Source of the DNA: Candidatus Aminicenantes bacterium
GTDB taxonomy: Bacteria; Acidobacteriota; Aminicenantia; UBA2199
DNA length: 37,423 nt
Direction: 5' to 3'
NCBI GenBank assembly: GCA_023137075.1
Contig: JAGLQA010000240.1
Span: 1 to 37,423 of the forward strand
This document shows, one piece after another, positions 2,977 to 37,423 of the stretch. The notes below the pieces were generated by a model that saw nothing but the letters and a program-made list of their open reading frames with translations, was not told where the DNA came from and ran no database searches. Each line of letters starts with the position of its first letter. Within the stretch, counting starts at the first letter, position 1. A program made the translations under genes and the position numbers.

Positions 2977-4605
2977 TTATTCAATATGCGGATAAAAGTC
3001 AAAACTACCTTCGTTCTTCGCAGTATCGGTAATTTCGAGCAAAATCATCAGCACATGCTTGCCGTCGGGGGTCTTAACCGCTCCCACCTCTTTTAAGGGC
3101 ATCCGGGTCTCGATAATTTTTTTTTGCCGCGGATGTGTGATAATCAGTGAGTTCCCATAGTTTGCGGCGTTAATTTTTTCCAGGGGCACAATGTGATAAG
3201 GCGGTAGGGAGAAATCGGAAATTTTTAGATTTTTTAGAGAAAGGTTTTTTATGGCTATTTTTTGATATTTTTCCGGCGGGTATTTGGTGTAAAAAAGGAT
3301 GAAAGAATGGGGCAGGAAAAAGTGATTGCTTACGAATATATTCGTGTAGTCCTTTTTTTGTGTTAGGGTTATTGCCTGTCTCCAGCCGTAATCCCAGTAG
3401 TACCAACTGTAGTGCGGGTAAACGTGGAAAAATTTCTTCTGGTAATTGAAAAAACCCGCGGCTATGGTAAAAACAAGAGCGGCCGTGATAAATATTTTGT
3501 AGGATTTTTTCTTCACAAGATCGAGTACCCACCTGAGGCCGTAACCGGACGCCAGTGGAAAAAAGATACAACCGATGATTGCGCGAAGCGCATGGTCCGA
3601 CTGGGTCAGCGCCGCGGGTATGGGATAAAGCAGTAACCCTGCCGTTAAAATCAGAAGATGTTTTTTCCCGGTTTTATCTTTCTTCTTTAACAGGGTAATA
3701 AAAATTCCGATTAAACCGGCAATAATCGTAAAAATTTCCACCACGTACAATTGCCCGATTCCCAGGACATAAAACTTTAAACCGGGATTTTTGTTAAAAA
3801 ACAGGTAGTCGGGACTGAAATAGGACAGGTAATTCGTTACCCATTGGGCCGAATTCGACTGCAGTGCTTCCCTGGCCCGGGCCATTCCCGGGGACGATAT
3901 CCAGTAGCTGCCCAAAGCCGCGAGCACAAATAGCAGTATTATTCCCGCAATGATAGATTGCCTTCGAAAAGGTTTCAAATCCCGGAAAAAAATCAGGATC
4001 AAAACAACCAGAAAAACCGGGACAAAAACCCGGGCGGATGAATAACTATAGAGGGAAAATGAAAATGAAAGGGCTGAATAAACCAGGAATTTCCCCTTTT
4101 TCAGTCCCTTAAAGAAAAAATAGAGACCTAAGCAGAAGAGAAAAGGGAATAGAATAGCCCGAAATCCCACCCGGCTGTATAGGATATGCCAGGGACTCAC
4201 GGCCAGGAGAAAAGCCGGTACCAGGGCAATCCCCCCCCCTAACCATATTCGTGACAGAAAATAAAATATAAGAACCGTCAAGAGTCCAATCACAGCCGCC
4301 GGAAAGCGAACGGCAAACTCCGTCAAACCAAAGCATAAAACCGAGGGAATAACCAGGAAGCGGTAAAGGGATTCGTTGTAATCACCGAAGGAGCGGGAGA
4401 AAAGGGGCAGGAACGTACCGTATTGATCCCGCCCGGTTTTCAACATCGAATAGGCATCATACCCGGTAGATGCTTCGTCCCGGAAAAGCCCCACCGGGTT
4501 ATCTCCTAATTTATAAAAACGAATGAACAGGGCGATGCACATAATCGCCACCAGGAGCAGGTTGGTGAGCGATAGAATATTCCGTTTCGCTTTTTCGGGC
4601 ATCAT
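2977..4605 (-). CDS. Polytopic glycosyltransferase family 39 protein (ArnT / PMT_2-like)
   Basis: 542 aa with more than 10 hydrophobic spans. The periplasmic loop after TM1 (FRDEASTGYDAYSMLKTGRDQYG) carries the DE-type motif typical of GT-C/GT39 enzymes. The C-terminal ~150 aa form a soluble domain. Confidence 0.65.
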   Translation of the reverse strand: MMPEKAKRNILSLTNLLLVAIMCIALFIRFYKLGDNPVGLFRDEASTGYDAYSMLKTGRDQYGTFLPLFSRSFGDYNESLYRFLVIPSVLCFGLTEFAVRFPAAVIGLLTVLIFYFLSRIWLGGGIALVPAFLLAVSPWHILYSRVGFRAILFPFLFCLGLYFFFKGLKKGKFLVYSALSFSFSLYSYSSARVFVPVFLVVLILIFFRDLKPFRRQSIIAGIILLFVLAALGSYWISSPGMARAREALQSNSAQWVTNYLSYFSPDYLFFNKNPGLKFYVLGIGQLYVVEIFTIIAGLIGIFITLLKKKDKTGKKHLLILTAGLLLYPIPAALTQSDHALRAIIGCIFFPLASGYGLRWVLDLVKKKSYKIFITAALVFTIAAGFFNYQKKFFHVYPHYSWYYWDYGWRQAITLTQKKDYTNIFVSNHFFLPHSFILFYTKYPPEKYQKIAIKNLSLKNLKISDFSLPPYHIVPLEKINAANYGNSLIITHPRQKKIIETRMPLKEVGAVKTPDGKHVLMILLEITDTAKNEGSFDFYPHIE

Positions 4606-9379: not shown

Positions 9380-11733
9380 AGAAACTAAAAGCGTCACCCT
9401 TTGTAATGTTTTTTGTTTTTTTTATACTGGCCAATTCTGCGCAATATGCAGTTAATAGAGTAAATATAGAAGATGTTGAATACCTGAAGGGAACGGATTT
9501 TGTGCAATTACGCTTTGTGACCGATAAAATCATCTCGATACCGGATGTATTTTACCCGGATGAAGGTAATCCGAAGCGCCTGATTATGAGGATCGGAGAT
9601 GTGATGTTCAATATTAGCAAAGACAGTTTCCAATTTGACTCCCAGGTTATCGACAGCGTCACATTTAGCACAAAGAATAACTTTACGGATGTTGAAATCA
9701 CGTTAAGAGAAAGAGTCAATTACCGGGTATTTACCAACCGGAATGGACTATATATTGAATTCCCCAATATAAAAAGAACCGCGGCGGCACCGCAATACGC
9801 CCCTATCAGGCAGAAGCCGGTTCCTGTAAATGTAAGCAGGAAAGGGATAGACAGCGCCGGGCTGAATTCAATCAAGGATATCAGGATAACCGAAAAAAAT
9901 GCCGATAAGATCCGGGTTGAATTCGTGCTGGCCAATGCCGTCAATTATAATGTCATCCCGATTCATGATCCACCGGTAAGATTGGCAATCGACCTGAAAA
10001 ATACCCGCTCCCGAAGACTGAAAAGAGCGATCAACCATTTGAACGTTAAAAGCCTTAGAGGCGATTGCAATACGTCCAGTGTTTTCAGGATCGTGTTTGA
10101 CCTGTTTTACTTAAAAAGTTACAGCGTATCCTTGAAAAAAAACGTACTGGAAGTTGAATTTTTTAGTGCCAATTCTCTTGCCCAAAAGAGAAAGGAACCT
10201 GAGAAAAAAACCGAAGTAGAAAAGAAAATCCCTCTTAAAAAAGCTATTAAAACCACGCCGGATGAAGATAATACCCGGCAGGAAATTAAGGTGAATCCCG
10301 TTGAAGAAGTAAAACCCAGGATCGTAATTACCAATAGTGACATAGAAAAGAGTGAGTTTTTTTCGGAAGAGAAATCTATCGTGGCCGGAGGACAGGCGCA
10401 GGATCTCGAGTCGGATCCACCCCAGGCCGTCATCCAGGCGAGCTCCCTGTTTCAAAACAAGGTCATTAGAGACGGCAAAAAAGAATGGAAAGGCGCTTTA
10501 CGGTCCTATCATTTAAAGGACCAGGACTTAGTCAACCTATTGATCCACTTTGCCAGGGATACCGGGATAAGCATGGTCTTTGACCCGAATATCTCCGGGA
10601 CAGTTACCGCTGAATTGAACCAGGTGCCCTGGGACCAGGCATTGGATATCTTTTTACGGCAGAACGGGCTCGGCATGCAGCATGAAGGAAATGTCATACG
10701 GATAGCCACCATTAGCCGGCTGACCAAGGAATCCAAAGATAGAAGACAATTGCAGGAATCGAGGGAGTCGGAAGCCGAGCTTGACACCCGGACACGGGTG
10801 CTGAGTTATGCCAAAGCCTCGGAAGTAAAAAGCATATTAGATAAGTCGCTCACAACGCGCGGCAATATCGAGGTGGATCAGAGAAGCAATACCCTGATTA
10901 TTACCGAAGTGCCCGACAATTTTGTCATATTAGACGGGTTAATAGCAGCCGTGGATACCGCTACTCCCCAGGTATCCATCGAAGCCAGGATTATCGAGAC
11001 CAACTCTAACTACTCCAAAAACCTCGGTGTCCAGTGGGGCTATCGATTTATGGCGGATTCGGCCTACGGCAACCAGACATCAATGAAGTTCCCCAACTCC
11101 ATCGGGGCATTAGGCAACCAATTGGACTCGCGCATACTGCCTGCTATAGGGCCCTTGGCCGGGTATGCCGTCAACCTGCCCGCTCCCGGCGCCACCTCAG
11201 CCGCCACCTTTACCCTGGGCAATGTTTCAAACACCTTTCGCTTAGATATGGCGATTTCCGCGATGCAGAGAAAAGGTAAAGGTAGAATAATCCAGGCGCC
11301 TCGCTTTGTCACCCAGAATAATGTAGAGGCAACCATCAAGCAGGGGTACAGTATCCCGATTCAGATACTGCAGAACAACACCATCCAGGTACAGTACAAG
11401 GAAGCTGTATTGTCCCTGACCGTTAAACCCACCATAACGGCAGACGACAGCATAACAATGGAAATAAATATCACCAACGACAACGTCGATTGGGGTAATT
11501 ATGTCGATAAATTCCCCGCCCTCTTAACCCAATCCGCCGAGACCACGATAAAGGCAAAGAATGGGGAAACCATTGTTATCGGCGGGATGTATAAGATTGA
11601 AACCGGTACGACTAAAAATTCGGTTCCCCTGTTGTATAAGCTGCCGCTGTTGGGAAATTTATTCAAAAGCAAGATAAAAAGCACTCAATCCAGGGAGACT
11701 TTAATATTTATAACTCCGCGGATCGTAAGATAG
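9376..11733 (+). CDS. pilQ: Type IV pilus secretin PilQ with N-terminal AMIN-like domains
   Basis: The C-terminal secretin domain is recognisable (GETIVIGGMY..VPLLYKLPLLGNLFKSK..RETLIFITPRIV). Upstream are N0/N1-like repeats and two AMIN-like modules. I moved the start from 9346 to the ATG at 9376 (MKKLKASPF signal peptide), which has a GGAGG 7 nt upstream and an ATGA overlap with the pilP stop. Confidence 0.9.
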   Translation: MKKLKASPFVMFFVFFILANSAQYAVNRVNIEDVEYLKGTDFVQLRFVTDKIISIPDVFYPDEGNPKRLIMRIGDVMFNISKDSFQFDSQVIDSVTFSTKNNFTDVEITLRERVNYRVFTNRNGLYIEFPNIKRTAAAPQYAPIRQKPVPVNVSRKGIDSAGLNSIKDIRITEKNADKIRVEFVLANAVNYNVIPIHDPPVRLAIDLKNTRSRRLKRAINHLNVKSLRGDCNTSSVFRIVFDLFYLKSYSVSLKKNVLEVEFFSANSLAQKRKEPEKKTEVEKKIPLKKAIKTTPDEDNTRQEIKVNPVEEVKPRIVITNSDIEKSEFFSEEKSIVAGGQAQDLESDPPQAVIQASSLFQNKVIRDGKKEWKGALRSYHLKDQDLVNLLIHFARDTGISMVFDPNISGTVTAELNQVPWDQALDIFLRQNGLGMQHEGNVIRIATISRLTKESKDRRQLQESRESEAELDTRTRVLSYAKASEVKSILDKSLTTRGNIEVDQRSNTLIITEVPDNFVILDGLIAAVDTATPQVSIEARIIETNSNYSKNLGVQWGYRFMADSAYGNQTSMKFPNSIGALGNQLDSRILPAIGPLAGYAVNLPAPGATSAATFTLGNVSNTFRLDMAISAMQRKGKGRIIQAPRFVTQNNVEATIKQGYSIPIQILQNNTIQVQYKEAVLSLTVKPTITADDSITMEINITNDNVDWGNYVDKFPALLTQSAETTIKAKNGETIVIGGMYKIETGTTKNSVPLLYKLPLLGNLFKSKIKSTQSRETLIFITPRIVR

Positions 11734-34270: not shown

Positions 34271-34504
34271 TTACATCGATCTGCTGAGTGCCCGGTCGAT
34301 TCTTGTCCTATCGAACCCGACGATGATTTTACCGTTTATATCGATGACCGGCACACCTTGCTGCCGTGATTTATGAACCATCTCCTCGGCTCTCCTGCGA
34401 TCCACCGCTACATTGTAATCGGTGAATTTGATGCCCTTATCCCGCAAGTATTTTTTTGCGATATTGCAATACGAACATGTCGGTGTAGAGTATATTTTGA
34501 TCAT
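34271..34504 (-). CDS. Glutaredoxin-like protein (CSYC active site)
   Basis: I moved the start to 34504 (MIKIYSTPTCSYCNIAKKYL), which has an AAGGAGG upstream. The 77-aa product has the GVPVI..G motif of glutaredoxin/NrdH folds. Confidence 0.75.
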   Translation of the reverse strand: MIKIYSTPTCSYCNIAKKYLRDKGIKFTDYNVAVDRRRAEEMVHKSRQQGVPVIDINGKIIVGFDRTRIDRALSRSM

Positions 34505-34517
34505 GTTACCGCCCTCC

Positions 34518-34835
34518 TTAATGCAGGGATTCGACAGCCTGGACCAATGTGTTTTCATCCTGGACACCCACAAATTGTTTGGCCGGCTCCCCGTCTTTAA
34601 AAATAATCATGGTGGGTATTCCGGTGATACCGAATTTGCCGGGAGTGGCCATGTTTTCATCCACGTTGAGCTTGCATACTTTCGCCTTGTCAGCCACTTT
34701 TTGCGCCACCTTCTCGAGGATCGGCCCCTGGATCAGACAGGGCTGGCACCAGGGCGCCCAGAAATCTACGATGGTCAAGCCTTCTCCTATCACCTGTTCA
34801 AAGTTACTGTCATCAATGTTTTTTACGTCTGCCAT
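34518..34835 (-). CDS. Thioredoxin with an atypical WCQPC active site
   Basis: I moved the start to 34835 (MADVKNIDDSNFEQVI), which has an AAGGAG upstream. The protein reads VDFWAPWCQPC..GIPTMIIFKDG, a classic Trx fold with Gln in place of the usual Gly. Confidence 0.8.
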   Translation of the reverse strand: MADVKNIDDSNFEQVIGEGLTIVDFWAPWCQPCLIQGPILEKVAQKVADKAKVCKLNVDENMATPGKFGITGIPTMIIFKDGEPAKQFVGVQDENTLVQAVESLH

Positions 34836-34865
34836 TTTATTTACTCCTTTGCATTTAGTTTCGCT

Positions 34866-34895
34866 TAGCATTAATTGCTATCAGCAACTATTGCT
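34866..34895. promoter_or_regulatory. Two adjacent TAGCA-N5-TGCTA type palindromes (candidate MarR operator)
   Basis: TAGCATTAATTGCTA lies at 34866-34880 and AGCAACTATTGCT at 34883-34895. With the corrected trx start, both fall between the predicted -10 and the trx SD. Confidence 0.45.
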
Positions 34896-34903
34896 AAGAG
34901 CAC

Positions 34904-34932
34904 ATGATACACAATTTTTTTCAATTTGTCAA
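34904..34932 (-). promoter_or_regulatory. Putative sigma70 promoter of the trx-grx-marR operon (A-tract, TTGACA-17 bp-TATCAT)
   Basis: On the minus strand, AAAAAAAC precedes TTGACA (34932-34927), followed by a 17-nt spacer and TATCAT (34909-34904). Confidence 0.5.
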
Positions 34933-34965
34933 GTTTTTTTAAAAAAATAAAATATGTCTGAACCG

Positions 34966-34996
34966 GGATTTACAGGATTTAAGGATTACCAGGATA
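34966..34996. repeat. Four short direct repeats GGAT(T/A) at 8-9 bp spacing
   Basis: GGATT occurs at 34966, 34975 and 34983, and GGATA at 34992, within CGGGATTTACAGGATTTAAGGATTACCAGGATAAAA. Confidence 0.6.
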
Positions 34997-35071
34997 AAAA
35001 TGAAGTCCGCCTTAATATTTTACCCAAAGCAGCCCGGAAAACAAAATGATTTATATTAAACGGAAATTGAG

Positions 35072-35100
35072 TTGCAAATAGTTCCAAAAGGATTTATAAT
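35072..35100 (+). promoter_or_regulatory. Putative sigma70 promoter of the mntA-hepT pair (TTGCAA-17 bp-TATAAT)
   Basis: TTGCAA at 35072-35077, a 17-nt spacer, and TATAAT at 35095-35100. GAGGA lies 4 nt before the ATG at 35145. Confidence 0.5.
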
Positions 35101-35144
35101 CAGTATCTGCTTGAAATAAGCGAAAGTATAATGCCGAGGAAAAA

Positions 35145-35438
35145 ATGGCTTTAGAAAATATTATTCAAAAGATGAAAACTAAAATATTACCGATATTGAA
35201 GAAATATCAGGTTAAAAAGGCCTCCTTTTTTGGTTCTATTACCCAGGGAAATTTCAAAAAGGATAGTGATATCGATATACTGGTAGAGTTATCAAACGAG
35301 TCGAGTTTGTTCGACTTTATCGGTCTAAAGAATGAATTGGAGGACACTGTAGAAAGAAAAGTTGATTTGGTTGAATATGATACGATCAAAGAACCTATAA
35401 GGGAAAAAATTTTAGCAGGGCAAGTTCATATTTTATAA
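35145..35438 (+). CDS. mntA: Minimal nucleotidyltransferase (MNT) antitoxin of a HepT/MntA-type module
   Basis: 97 aa. [19 protein letters not shown] matches the GS-x(n)-DxD motif of Pol-beta-fold nucleotidyltransferases. It lies directly upstream of a HEPN gene. Confidence 0.8.
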
Positions 35439-35442
35439 TTGT

Positions 35443-35787
35443 ATGGCACGGGAAATAGAAGTCTATCTAAATGATATTTTTGAAAGTATAAATCTAATAG
35501 AAGATTATGTGAAAGACATAGATGTGGATGAGTTTGCCGGTAATATTCAACTTCAGGATGCTGTAGTAAGACGATTTGAAATTATAGGTGAAGCTGCTAA
35601 ACAGATACCTGATGACATTAGGGAACGATATCCACATATCCCCTGGAGGAAGATGGCTGGATTGAGGGATGTGTTGATTCACCATTATTTTGGAGTGAGT
35701 GTTATGAGAGTATGGAGATTAATTAAAAAAGAACTCACCCAGGTAAAGGAGGACATCTATAATCTCATTTCTGAATTAGCTTATTGA
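35443..35787 (+). CDS. hepT: HEPN-domain (DUF86) toxin
   Basis: 114 aa with an R-x4-H motif (RDVLIHHYF) near the C-terminus. A 4-nt gap separates it from the MNT gene. Confidence 0.8.
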
Positions 35788-35817
35788 GGTTGGATCTAAA
35801 GAAAAGTTCTTTTAATG

Positions 35818-35837
35818 ACTGGTTTTGTTAAACCAGT
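35818..35837. terminator. 8-bp hairpin at the convergent junction of hepT and the 386-aa gene
   Basis: ACTGGTTT pairs with AAACCAGT around a TGTT loop. The right arm overlaps the stop and last codons of the minus-strand gene. The flanking T/A runs are weak. Confidence 0.3.
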
Positions 35838-36988
35838 TTCAACATATCGCCTTCAATAATCGTTGATGTATCAACAATATTTTTCATGGTGTCTCTGAAT
35901 TTAGTAAAAGTTGAAAGAAATTCTTTTTTTGATTTGTTAAATTTTGTTGTTAATCTTCTATATTTGCTATATACTTCGATAATAGAGTCAATTTTTGGAA
36001 TTAGGAAATTAAAGCTCGATTTTGTATTTGAAATCAATCCTAATGATTGTTCAATTGGTTTTGTTTTGGGGACATTGAGTTCATTAATAAAAATTGCAGC
36101 ATGTCTTAGACCGTCTAAGTATATTTTAGAACTTTCTTGCAGTAAAGGTAATTCTTTTTCGATCACGTTACGAAGTTTGTCCATATTGTTTGCCGTCTGG
36201 TTGACAGATTCTTTTATATTTTTGTTTTTCGGATCTGTATTGTTTGATCGATTGTGAATCTTTTCTTGAGTTGAAACATAGTCTGCAAGAGCTTCATTGA
36301 TTTTGAGTGCTGACAATTTTATTTTTTGACTTTCTGACATACTCTTTTCATAAATATCAAAGAAACCGTCTTCTTCACTAAAATAAATCTGTTTTTCTGA
36401 ATCTTTGCCAGATACGTCTCCTTGGCATATTACTTTATTTTCAATTGGTATTCCCCAGGTTATCCCCCAGTCTATTAGATGCTGTTCTAAATGACGGCGG
36501 ATCAGTGTTTTGAACTCTTCTGTATCACGAAACTCCTGATAAAGGTTTTTTGCTTTTATTTTATCTTTGAAATTCTTAATTAATTCAATTTGTTTAGGCT
36601 CTATATCATCAGGGGCGATAGGTTTATTTTTGAAGTAAAACATAATCTTTATAGACTTAGGTTTTTTTTGATAGATAGCGTATGCTTGGTTAAACTCTTC
36701 CTCTGTACCCGATCTAGCTTTTTTAGTTGGTGTACCAAACCATGACCATAATATACCAATAAAAAAATCATAATCATGTAGTAATTGTTTATTTACTACA
36801 TCCTGAGGATATTCTCCGATATCTGGATAGCTATCCTTCTCCCAGGTTATTGGCACTATTCTAATATTTTTTGCTTTGCTCCAAATTATATTCATTTCTT
36901 CAATTATATCCAATATTGCATTCCGTTCTGGTTTTACATCACCTGGTGAAGCTATCAAAACTTTTAATATTGTTTCTTGCTTTGCCAT
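35828..36988 (-). CDS. Uncharacterised 386-aa protein: N-terminal DUF4062/TIR-like Rossmannoid domain plus a C-terminal helical domain of unknown family
   Basis: AAGGAG lies 7 nt before the ATG. The N-terminal ~170 aa carry VLIASPGDVKPER, FFIGILWSWFGTPT, SGTEEEF and IMFYF. I recall this motif order from the DUF4062 profile (hhISS..ER / DhFIGIhG.RYG / S.TE.E / hhhF). The remainder is a K/N/S/I-rich helical region with no TM segment. The gene is very AT-rich. Confidence 0.5.
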   Translation of the reverse strand: MAKQETILKVLIASPGDVKPERNAILDIIEEMNIIWSKAKNIRIVPITWEKDSYPDIGEYPQDVVNKQLLHDYDFFIGILWSWFGTPTKKARSGTEEEFNQAYAIYQKKPKSIKIMFYFKNKPIAPDDIEPKQIELIKNFKDKIKAKNLYQEFRDTEEFKTLIRRHLEQHLIDWGITWGIPIENKVICQGDVSGKDSEKQIYFSEEDGFFDIYEKSMSESQKIKLSALKINEALADYVSTQEKIHNRSNNTDPKNKNIKESVNQTANNMDKLRNVIEKELPLLQESSKIYLDGLRHAAIFINELNVPKTKPIEQSLGLISNTKSSFNFLIPKIDSIIEVYSKYRRLTTKFNKSKKEFLSTFTKFRDTMKNIVDTSTIIEGDMLKLV

Positions 36989-37072
36989 TGATTTACTCCT
37001 TATTTAGATCGACACGTAACACTTTTATTAATTTGTTTTTAATGCGTTTTTTTGACAATTAATTTTAGGCAT

Positions 37073-37285
37073 CTAAAGAATCTTTCCCTTTACCTCATCT
37101 AAATTCAGGTATTTTGCGTTTTTTTCATTTAGCCGTTCTAAGGCGGATATTCCATCCTCAAAATCTTCGAGATATAATTCCAGCATCTCTTTGATATATG
37201 AACTTTTTTTACGCCTGTTTTTTGTTGACAGACGTTCTAACCGTTCGGCCGTTCGTTCGTCAATTCTTACATTCAACATCGGCAT
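37073..37285 (-). CDS. Ribbon-helix-helix (CopG/RelB-ParD-like) antitoxin-type DNA-binding protein
   Basis: 70 aa. The N-terminal beta-strand/helix (LNVRIDERTAERLERLS) is followed by a C-terminal ALERLNEKNAKYLNLDEV tail of the kind seen in RelB/ParD-class antitoxins. GGAGAAG precedes the ATG. It lies 84 bp upstream of the 386-aa gene on the same strand. Confidence 0.65.
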   Translation of the reverse strand: MPMLNVRIDERTAERLERLSTKNRRKKSSYIKEMLELYLEDFEDGISALERLNEKNAKYLNLDEVKGKIL

Positions 37286-37320
37286 TTATTCTTCTCCTTT
37301 ACCGGGGATGGCAACTCAAC

Positions 37321-37334
37321 TAAATACGTATGTA
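37321..37334. promoter_or_regulatory. Near-palindrome TAAATACGTATGTA upstream of the RHH gene (candidate autoregulatory operator)
   Basis: The core ATACGTAT (37324-37331) is a perfect 8-bp palindrome. The 14-bp version has one symmetric mismatch pair. It lies ~36-49 nt upstream of the RHH start codon. Confidence 0.3.
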
Positions 37335-37423
37335 ACCTGTATGGTAAAGCACCATTCCCTTTTTTTTAACAGGTTTTTGAGAATTTCTTACCTCGTCTCA
37401 GGCGGAACCGCACGCGTCAGGAG

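Follow-up and report, generated by a model that had tools for sequence, protein, structure and literature searches.

The stretch analysed here, which we call the window, comprises 37,423 nucleotides of a Candidatus Aminicenantes bacterium (assembly GCA_023137075.1, contig JAGLQA010000240.1, positions 1 to 37,423) and carries near its end two minus-strand genes. The upstream gene encodes a 70-residue ribbon-helix-helix (RHH) protein; after a gap of 84 bp comes an open reading frame (ORF; 35828..36988) for a 386-residue protein with an N-terminal DUF4062 domain, whose ATG is preceded at 7 nt by a Shine–Dalgarno sequence, AAGGAG (36996-37001). ORFs, strands, gap and ribosome-binding site are all as given in a preliminary description, made from the sequence alone, which proposed that the pair forms an undescribed toxin-antitoxin (TA) or defence module. 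Our analysis favours another arrangement: the larger gene is likely to be a stand-alone defence gene for an NAD+ glycohydrolase (NADase), sitting in the old slot of a parE toxin gene beside an orphan antitoxin, and not one half of a dedicated two-gene system.

The DUF4062 domain and the named systems

The preliminary description had recognised DUF4062, and this recognition was sound: Pfam family PF13271 (DUF4062) matches residues 9-102 with 29.3 bits, above the curated gathering cut-off of 24.7, and all four of the motifs that it quoted are present. Among 32 full-length homologues, from a family of proteins ~380-410 residues long, each one either carries PF13271 in precomputed annotation or aligns throughout, and the invariant positions are P15, E21, R22, N33, Q62, F76, G78, G85, S93, T95, E98, A102, and F140. 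S93, T95, and E98 belong to the motif SGTEEEF, and E98 is invariant in two further alignments (26 and 18 sequences) as well. A profile of the N-domain family matches the solved KpSwz chain 10wc_A (E 2.4e-5, 27 bits), placing E98 opposite the alanine of the crystallised KpSwz E97A mutant (SGTEEEF against SFTEKAF). BLASTP aligns an 884-residue Pseudomonas DUF4062 protein with residues 2-171 only, at 42% identity and with SGTEEEF numbered identically.

DUF4062, now renamed NIR, is described as a TIR-like NAD+ glycohydrolase and abortive-infection effector in three 2026 preprints, which deal with Swarozyc (Osinski et al., bioRxiv 10.64898/2026.05.01.722283), Evangelion (Ibarra-Chavez et al., bioRxiv 10.64898/2026.06.25.731849), and Vulcan (Le Mouellic et al., bioRxiv 10.64898/2026.09.04.749371); DUF4062 defence can thus no longer be called undescribed. 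The essential catalytic Glu is E97 in KpSwz (WP_202404386), E98 in Vulcan (WP_050009967.1), E108 in Avs2-NIR (PsAvs2), and E87 in Eva01, and the characterised DUF4062 proteins are single-gene, non-toxic alone, and self-inhibited. Sequence comparison supports the view of the 386-residue protein as an effector of conflict systems, with a DUF4062 domain of the TIR/nucleoside deoxyribosyltransferase-like kind. The proposal that a conserved Glu of SGTEEEF is catalytic has gained in substance, as E98, the residue that aligns with KpSwz E97, is the predicted catalytic residue and NAD+ would by analogy be the expected substrate.

In the full-length AlphaFold2 (AF2) model (mean predicted local distance difference test score, pLDDT, 83.9), an alpha/beta domain (residues 1-~178) is followed by a disordered linker (182-200) and four helices (209-385). 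The N-domain model has five parallel strands alternating with helices (predicted template modelling score 0.81). In the full-length Foldseek search TIR-STING stands at rank 40 and nowhere higher; matches of the type “alpha/beta domain plus helical stalk” (GBP1, dynamin, Mx; template modelling (TM) scores ~0.2-0.5) were set aside as no help for family assignment.

Of the named systems, Vulcan (NIR plus HEAT; Le Mouellic et al.), which judged by its architecture is probably the PADLOC candidate PDC-S60, provides the closest N-terminal match. The PDC-S60 profile matches the 386-residue protein with E 6.7e-48 and 161.6 bits; both Vulcan and the 386-residue protein are encoded by a single gene with the effector N-terminal and a helical sensor C-terminal, the 884-residue protein has the same SGTEEEF, and the numbering of E98 agrees with that of Vulcan-type proteins. 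Vulcan proteins are ~900 residues long with an extended C-terminal HEAT region, whereas the 386-residue protein is missing this ~650-residue C-terminal region and has a 180-residue four-helix domain, AUX, instead. Membership of PDC-S60 was rejected since the match is limited to the common N-domain (profile positions 4-245 of 906); a true member of 911 residues (L043) spans 2-906, and all DUF4062 proteins tried match the N-terminal part of the profile in the same manner.

Swarozyc is likewise a single gene, encoding a TIR-like DUF4062 NADase domain, then a helical region, then an auxiliary sensor. Its catalytic Glu falls in the same column, and a Trp segment lies past the last domain helix in both (W174/W178 in the window, W176 in KpSwz). 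KpSwz is activated when its winged helix-turn-helix (HTH) AUX binds the phage portal (Osinski et al.; PDB 10wc, 11cq, 11cv). The N-domains are, however, only distantly related, the family profile covers the KpSwz N-domain only (query 8-204 or 51-174), and the winged-HTH AUX of KpSwz has a beta-hairpin anchor, whereas the AUX of the window is predicted to be all-alpha and has no sequence match to it. Vesta, in which a small NIR protein shares its operon with an alkaline phosphatase gene (vstB), differs in context: the neighbours in the window are RHH, HepT, and MntA, with no phosphatase.

Evangelion (Eva01-Eva04) combines a DUF4062 core with an AUX region, in the plasmid-borne Eva01 lineage a short one, and is linked to NAD+ depletion (Ibarra-Chavez et al.). 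It shares with the 386-residue protein the single-gene format and the expected link to NAD+ depletion, and it often has TA modules nearby, but no full-length homologue of our protein occurs in 72,556 plasmids, where the matches are confined to the N-domain (n=161, mostly Enterococcus). As a stand-in for the Evangelion sequences we compared the AUX profile with one Enterococcus plasmid DUF4062 protein, and hhalign gave a probability of 0.2%. A blastn search of E. coli genomes with a family member from Acinetobacter gave no match and so did not tie the lineage to Eva03 or Swz of E. coli. None of the named DUF4062 systems fits, Evangelion having been compared through the Enterococcus protein and Vulcan through the 884-residue protein and PDC-S60; the AUX lineage may already carry a name, including one within the Evangelion lineages. 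We note that a DUF4062 gene of another lineage, on an Enterococcus faecium plasmid (L113; NZ_CP109800.1, 2215-3987), has a RelE/ParE toxin and an HTH antitoxin 158 bp upstream and a TIR-domain gene downstream.

A C-terminal AUX domain family

The preliminary description saw in the C-terminus a K/N-rich helical region. AF2 agrees, predicting four long helices (209-249, 255-303, 310-341, and 348-385; pLDDT ~80-93). The preliminary description could place the region in no family, and here we differ: although Pfam has no model for it, profile searches define AUX as a well-conserved domain family. When the AUX profile was run against 1.84 billion cluster representatives (clusters at 50% identity), 2,429 proteins were found at E<=1e-3 and 399 at E<=1e-30, and in nearly all of the matches the domain occupies residues ~200-395 of a protein of ~390 residues. 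Its motifs are EExGFxDL at the domain start and (P)RxTxxxNKAK ahead of the last helix. Members come from Acidobacteriota, Planctomycetota, Bacteroidota, Pseudomonadota, Bacillota, and one Methanosaeta archaeon; tblastn against 50,697 phage records gave no match to the lineage. Matches of the full-length profile to PDB sequences at the C-terminus (coiled coils and designed bundles) were discarded as composition-driven.

AUX is modular. In one protein (P0155) a PIN_8 nuclease replaces DUF4062 ahead of AUX (hhalign probability 99.75%), and in another (P0174) HATPase_c and a STAS-like DUF4325 precede DUF4062-AUX. Two proteins carry a DNA-binding domain in frame ahead of DUF4062-AUX, RHH_1 in a single ORF in P0207 (L114, 1484-3127) and an XRE-type HTH in P0224; among the 150 best AUX matches each of these two kinds of fusion occurs once. 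The RHH of P0207 has no relation to that of the window beyond the fold. Genes for REase-ARP and SIR2_2 come after the fused gene at L114.

We presume AUX to be a sensor or regulatory module of defence proteins, because a C-terminal module that stays constant while its effectors are swapped is what one would expect of such a domain; since it also pairs with a PIN nuclease, it is a promising candidate for a novel sensor of phage. Some members have DUF4062 and AUX in split ORFs (L061 5983-7101, L062 5444-6448, and L052), and others are AUX-only proteins of ~190-240 residues, for example P0232 (L115, 3501-4145); in both cases pseudogenes, errors of assembly, and genuine two-gene versions are conceivable. 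The AUX-only proteins have the look of split genes or gene fragments from error-prone contigs.

The RHH gene, the spacer and the sister locus

The 70-residue protein was correctly called RHH. It matches Pfam RHH_3 with 23.1 bits (cut-off 21.6) and RHH_1 with 18.9 bits, and the NCBIfam model “RelB family antitoxin” scores 41.9 bits, under its cut-off of 50. Its homologues form a tight family of 71-residue DUF6290/RelB-like proteins. In three cases (59-68% identity) the antitoxin gene overlaps by 11 nt a downstream ParE_toxin gene for 86-96 residues, and a 71%-identical homologue (L116, 459-695) is followed by an overlapping ParE-like ORF whose C-terminus is scrambled by a frameshift; an NgoMIV-type restriction gene lies near this last pair. 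The likeness of the window RHH to these ParE-linked antitoxins spans the full length, tail included. As the preliminary description had observed, the gap holds no small toxin ORF: there is neither a toxin-sized ORF nor a ParE remnant by hidden Markov model (HMM), and a ParE HMM built from the four cognate toxins gave nothing better than E=2.4 when run on the window and sister loci translated from stop to stop. The RHH relatives thus present a series of toxin decay from whole parE through frameshifted parE (L116, the intermediate) to no parE. Since its homologues pair with ParE and no ParE is detectable here, we regard the RHH protein, on sequence grounds, as an orphan ParE-type antitoxin whose toxin gene is lost. 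The locus resembles a RelB/ParD-ParE type II TA operon in the DNA-binding fold of the antitoxin and in the upstream palindrome, typical of autoregulated TA operators; it differs in that ParE is absent and an unrelated gene lies 84 bp downstream.

The RHH protein is not a conserved partner of the DUF4062-AUX protein. With the AUX HMM we assembled 60 non-redundant loci of the same architecture from more than 10 phyla and one archaeon, and scanned with Pfam the 63 same-strand ORFs of 40-130 residues that end within 300 bp upstream; 0/63 encode RHH. A phmmer search with the window RHH against every ORF of at least 35 residues in 100 non-self DUF4062 loci found none at E<=10, so that the proposed recurrence of RHH and DUF4062 as a two-gene module failed on both samples (0/60 and 0/100 loci). 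The 112 immediate flanking genes belong to 107 different Pfam families, none present more than twice and most of them housekeeping, with a defence or mobile minority (AbiEi, type IIG restriction-modification (RM), HicA, pAgo, PDC-S01/S05, Mutator transposase). The five closest homologues examined (45-58% identity) also have no RHH upstream (0/5); their neighbours are AbiEi_3 with a nucleotidyltransferase, Phd/ParE with ORF6N, a type IIG RM enzyme with Eco57I/TaqI_C, and an IS200 transposase. The defence-island setting claimed for the window has its counterpart in the defence or mobile context of these closest homologues. TA modules beside DUF4062 genes recur by juxtaposition.

The spacer appears to be composite. 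Its last 20 nt (GGAGTAAATCAATGGCAA) are common to the DUF4062 homologues at L084, L085, and L086, and the leader GGAGTAAAnnnATGGCAA is likewise common to homologues; as the contexts are unrelated, we assign these 20 nt to the NADase cassette. The first ~40 nt show a faint likeness, consistent in position, to the 5' end of the L116 parE (peptides MPKINCQKNALKTN, then a stop, against MDYKIKFHEKAIKDL). A fixed-register test against that gene gave p~0.007-0.014, a level reached only by this closest relative, and local alignments of the spacer with five parE genes were not significant (z<=1.5). No terminator-like and no sigma-70-like site was found on the minus strand of the spacer (no site at or above 9/12, by a consensus of the E. 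coli type, of uncertain validity in Aminicenantes), and the TATAAT-like boxes found 30-45 nt upstream of the start in four homologues elsewhere have no counterpart in the window. Because the spacer has neither a terminator nor a consensus promoter, the NADase gene is probably co-transcribed from the RHH promoter, and coupled transcription of both genes at this locus is plausible.

The near-palindrome upstream of the RHH gene, TAAATACGTATGTA, is present as the preliminary description stated; the operator role given to it is suggestive at most. Its core, ATACGTAT, precedes the RHH start by 42 nt and is, taken alone, within chance expectation. An inverted-repeat scan upstream of the RHH gene found 9-nt palindromes only, and a 7-bp repeat, AACCTGT...ACAGGTT (37334-37340 and 37369-37375), was dismissed as chance level. 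At the sister locus L104 the site (~3455-3462) reads ACACGTGT, two substitutions that keep perfect dyad symmetry, and the change is accompanied by M3T in the RHH beta-strand. This symmetric change is suggestive of a functional operator, which may co-vary with its repressor (roughly p~0.07). The orphan antitoxin probably continues to control its own promoter and would in this way set the basal level of the NADase.

Sister loci show that the NADase gene comes and goes. An RHH homologue of 89% identity (P0063) lies in a syntenic locus (MraZ, ribonucleotide reductase (RNR), RHH, HepT, MntA, thioredoxin (trx), glutaredoxin (grx), MarR, Sua5) that has no DUF4062 gene. In L104 the DNA is near-identical to the window over the RHH gene and all 84 bp of the spacer, to the base before the ATG; a segment of 1,172 bp is then missing (opposite L104 3714-3830), and identity resumes 10 nt past the stop. 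L104 keeps a vestigial Shine–Dalgarno and leader sequence, ATGGAGTAAATC, with no ORF behind it. Because this leader belongs to the NADase cassette, the alignment is most simply read as an RHH-NADase gene order already present in the common ancestor, from which L104 has since lost the NADase gene by a recent and precise deletion. The NADase gene can be dispensed with and is in flux, a behaviour familiar from defence genes, and the RHH gene persists in its absence. Any TA pair can afford to lose its toxin, and L104 alone therefore does not decide against such a pair.

The features of the locus are collected in Table 1. The AT-rich patch beside HepT/MntA reported earlier is confirmed by GC values (RHH 0.371, spacer 0.25, DUF4062 0.311, HepT 0.359, MntA 0.313, against 0.452 for the whole window and 0.47-0.51 for the flanking trx, grx, and RNR genes) and by Pfam matches (MntA E 2e-16, HepT E 1e-28). 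MntA and HepT are a type VII TA pair, convergent to the NADase gene and found at syntenic loci both with and without it. The RNR gene (TSCPD domain) lies past the window end, so the low-GC patch (window 34271-37423; L081/L082 7422-12719) separates it from the trx-grx-marR genes, as an insert that parts the enzyme gene from those of its probable reductants. In the NCBI metagenome-assembled copy L081, a 1-bp insertion and two substitutions near 11372 (window ~35616) break hepT into ORFs of 44 and 59 residues; the 114-residue HepT is whole in the window and in two other assemblies. A tRNA scan and Rfam at the gathering threshold found nothing in the entire window (1-37423).

Table 1. Features of the RHH-NADase locus, in window coordinates
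Feature	Position	Strand	Basis and remarks
Near-palindrome TAAATACGTATGTA	37321..37334	none	Perfect 8-bp core ATACGTAT at 37324-37331; candidate RHH operator
70-residue RHH protein, orphan RelB/ParD-like (DUF6290) antitoxin	37073..37285	-	Pfam RHH_3 and RHH_1, NCBIfam RelB-like, homologues with ParE
84-bp spacer	36989..37072	-	First ~40 nt, possible decayed parE 5' end; last ~20 nt, NADase leader
DUF4062/NIR TIR-like domain, residues 1-~178	36455..36988	-	PF13271, PDC-S60 N-terminal region, KpSwz match, AF2
Predicted catalytic Glu, E98 codon	36695-36697	-	Alignment to KpSwz E97A
C-terminal AUX domain, residues ~200-386	35831..36391	-	AF2 helices, profile family; presumed sensor/regulatory module
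1,172-bp segment missing from sister locus L104	35818..36989	-	DNA alignment; NADase ORF and 10 nt past its stop
MntA	35145-35438	+	Pfam Polbeta/NTP_transf_2; context, not part of the unit
HepT	35443-35787	+	Pfam HepT-like; context, not part of the unit

Readings of the locus and their meaning

For a stand-alone NADase gene beside an orphan antitoxin we suggest the following scheme. The 386-residue protein would be a single-polypeptide abortive-infection defence protein, acting as an NAD+ glycohydrolase through E98, with ADP-ribose and nicotinamide as the expected products. AUX would hold the enzyme inactive until a phage cue is met, and the cue would bring about activation, probably via an oligomeric rearrangement; the activated enzyme would then deplete NAD+, and the infected cell would no longer support phage growth. 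The RHH protein would be the survivor of a RelB/ParD-ParE module whose toxin position is now taken by the NADase gene, and its dimer may repress, at the palindrome ATACGTAT, the RHH promoter from which the NADase gene is probably transcribed. The scheme joins what we observe in this protein and its family (homology, a conserved catalytic residue, a two-domain architecture, the modularity of AUX, and a solitary gene context) to an NADase activity, an autoinhibition, and a phage trigger that would be expected by analogy with Swarozyc, Evangelion, and Vulcan.

Several observations weigh against this scheme. The preliminary description had called for profile and fold searches; the Pfam match came out as expected, whereas Foldseek with the PDB, run with the full-length and the N-domain model in a library apparently without KpSwz, returned generic flavodoxin, GTPase, and vWA folds (TM 0.4-0.5) and not TIR specifically, so that the DUF4062, TIR-like, and NAD reading takes its support from sequence homology and the literature, not from fold searches. 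For the AUX lineage the defence role is itself a prediction from related systems. The fusions in P0207 (RHH_1) and P0224 (HTH) mean that a link between DNA binding and this effector recurs at low frequency, which could exceed passive juxtaposition. The E. coli-type promoter consensus may not suit Aminicenantes, and the relic of parE possibly present in the spacer is a weak hint.

A true TA-like pair, in which the RHH tail neutralises the NADase by binding to it, the RHH protein represses the operon, and loss of the labile RHH protein frees the effector, would account for the common strand, the 84-bp spacing, the strong Shine–Dalgarno sequence, and the lack of a terminator, and would put the NADase gene exactly where this antitoxin family keeps its toxin; the single-ORF RHH-DUF4062-AUX and HTH-DUF4062-AUX proteins (P0207, P0224) agree with it, and the sister strain has shed the “toxin” and kept the “antitoxin”, the direction of loss that such a pair tolerates. 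We nevertheless consider it very unlikely. RHH is upstream in 0/60 loci of the same architecture and 0/5 closest homologues, the RHH protein is 59-71% identical, tail included, to ParE-paired antitoxins with no sign of retargeting, and the RHH of P0207 is unrelated to it beyond the fold. Characterised DUF4062 proteins are non-toxic and autoinhibited, so that neutralisation at the protein level is unnecessary and unlikely. Pure juxtaposition, with the NADase served by a weak promoter of its own in the spacer and the RHH protein confined to orphan regulation or to trans-acting “immunity” against ParE, is unlikely too, though it suits the homologues elsewhere, which are solitary and have their own TATAAT-like boxes, the weakly promoter-like spacer string TTGTCA-N17-CAAATT, and the persistence of RHH without the NADase gene in L104. 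Against it stand the lack of a minus-strand spacer site at 9/12 of the consensus, of a terminator after the RHH gene, and, in the window, of the TATAAT box of the homologues.

A history of toxin replacement is a further reading: parE would have decayed, a non-homologous NIR-AUX NADase would have been captured in its stead, and the antitoxin would have been exapted as its dedicated repressor or even protein-level inhibitor. We think this distinctly unlikely; if it were true, the locus would be a hybrid TA/abortive-infection unit, and the independent in-frame RHH and HTH fusions elsewhere would reflect the same selective pressure for DNA-binding control of the NADase. That the 386-residue protein is instead a housekeeping or regulatory nucleotide or NAD enzyme, perhaps tied to the RNR and thioredoxin/glutaredoxin genes, is scarcely credible. 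Its gene does lie between RNR and trx-grx, and the immediate neighbours of family members are mostly housekeeping genes, but the family is patchily spread over more than 10 phyla and lacks conserved synteny, GC is anomalously low, presence differs between close strains, the nearest homologues sit beside AbiE, RM, TA, and IS (insertion sequence) elements, and a defence role of the domain class has been shown experimentally. We therefore retain the stand-alone NADase gene beside an orphan antitoxin as our preferred reading.

DUF4062/NIR NADases have newly emerged as a major class of immune effector common to bacteria and human TEP1, and the sensor architectures studied so far are few: winged HTH (Swarozyc), HEAT (Vulcan), STAND (Avs2), and the short AUX of Eva01. 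The effector assignment made here is itself already published biology. What is new is a large, apparently uncharacterised NIR lineage defined by an AUX that is also paired with a PIN nuclease, and a defence gene that has taken the place of the toxin in a decayed ParE TA module and is polymorphic for presence between close relatives. The locus also counsels caution against taking an antitoxin-like gene for the partner of a large effector just because it lies upstream, and it offers a clean natural example of the gain and loss of a defence gene at a decayed TA site.

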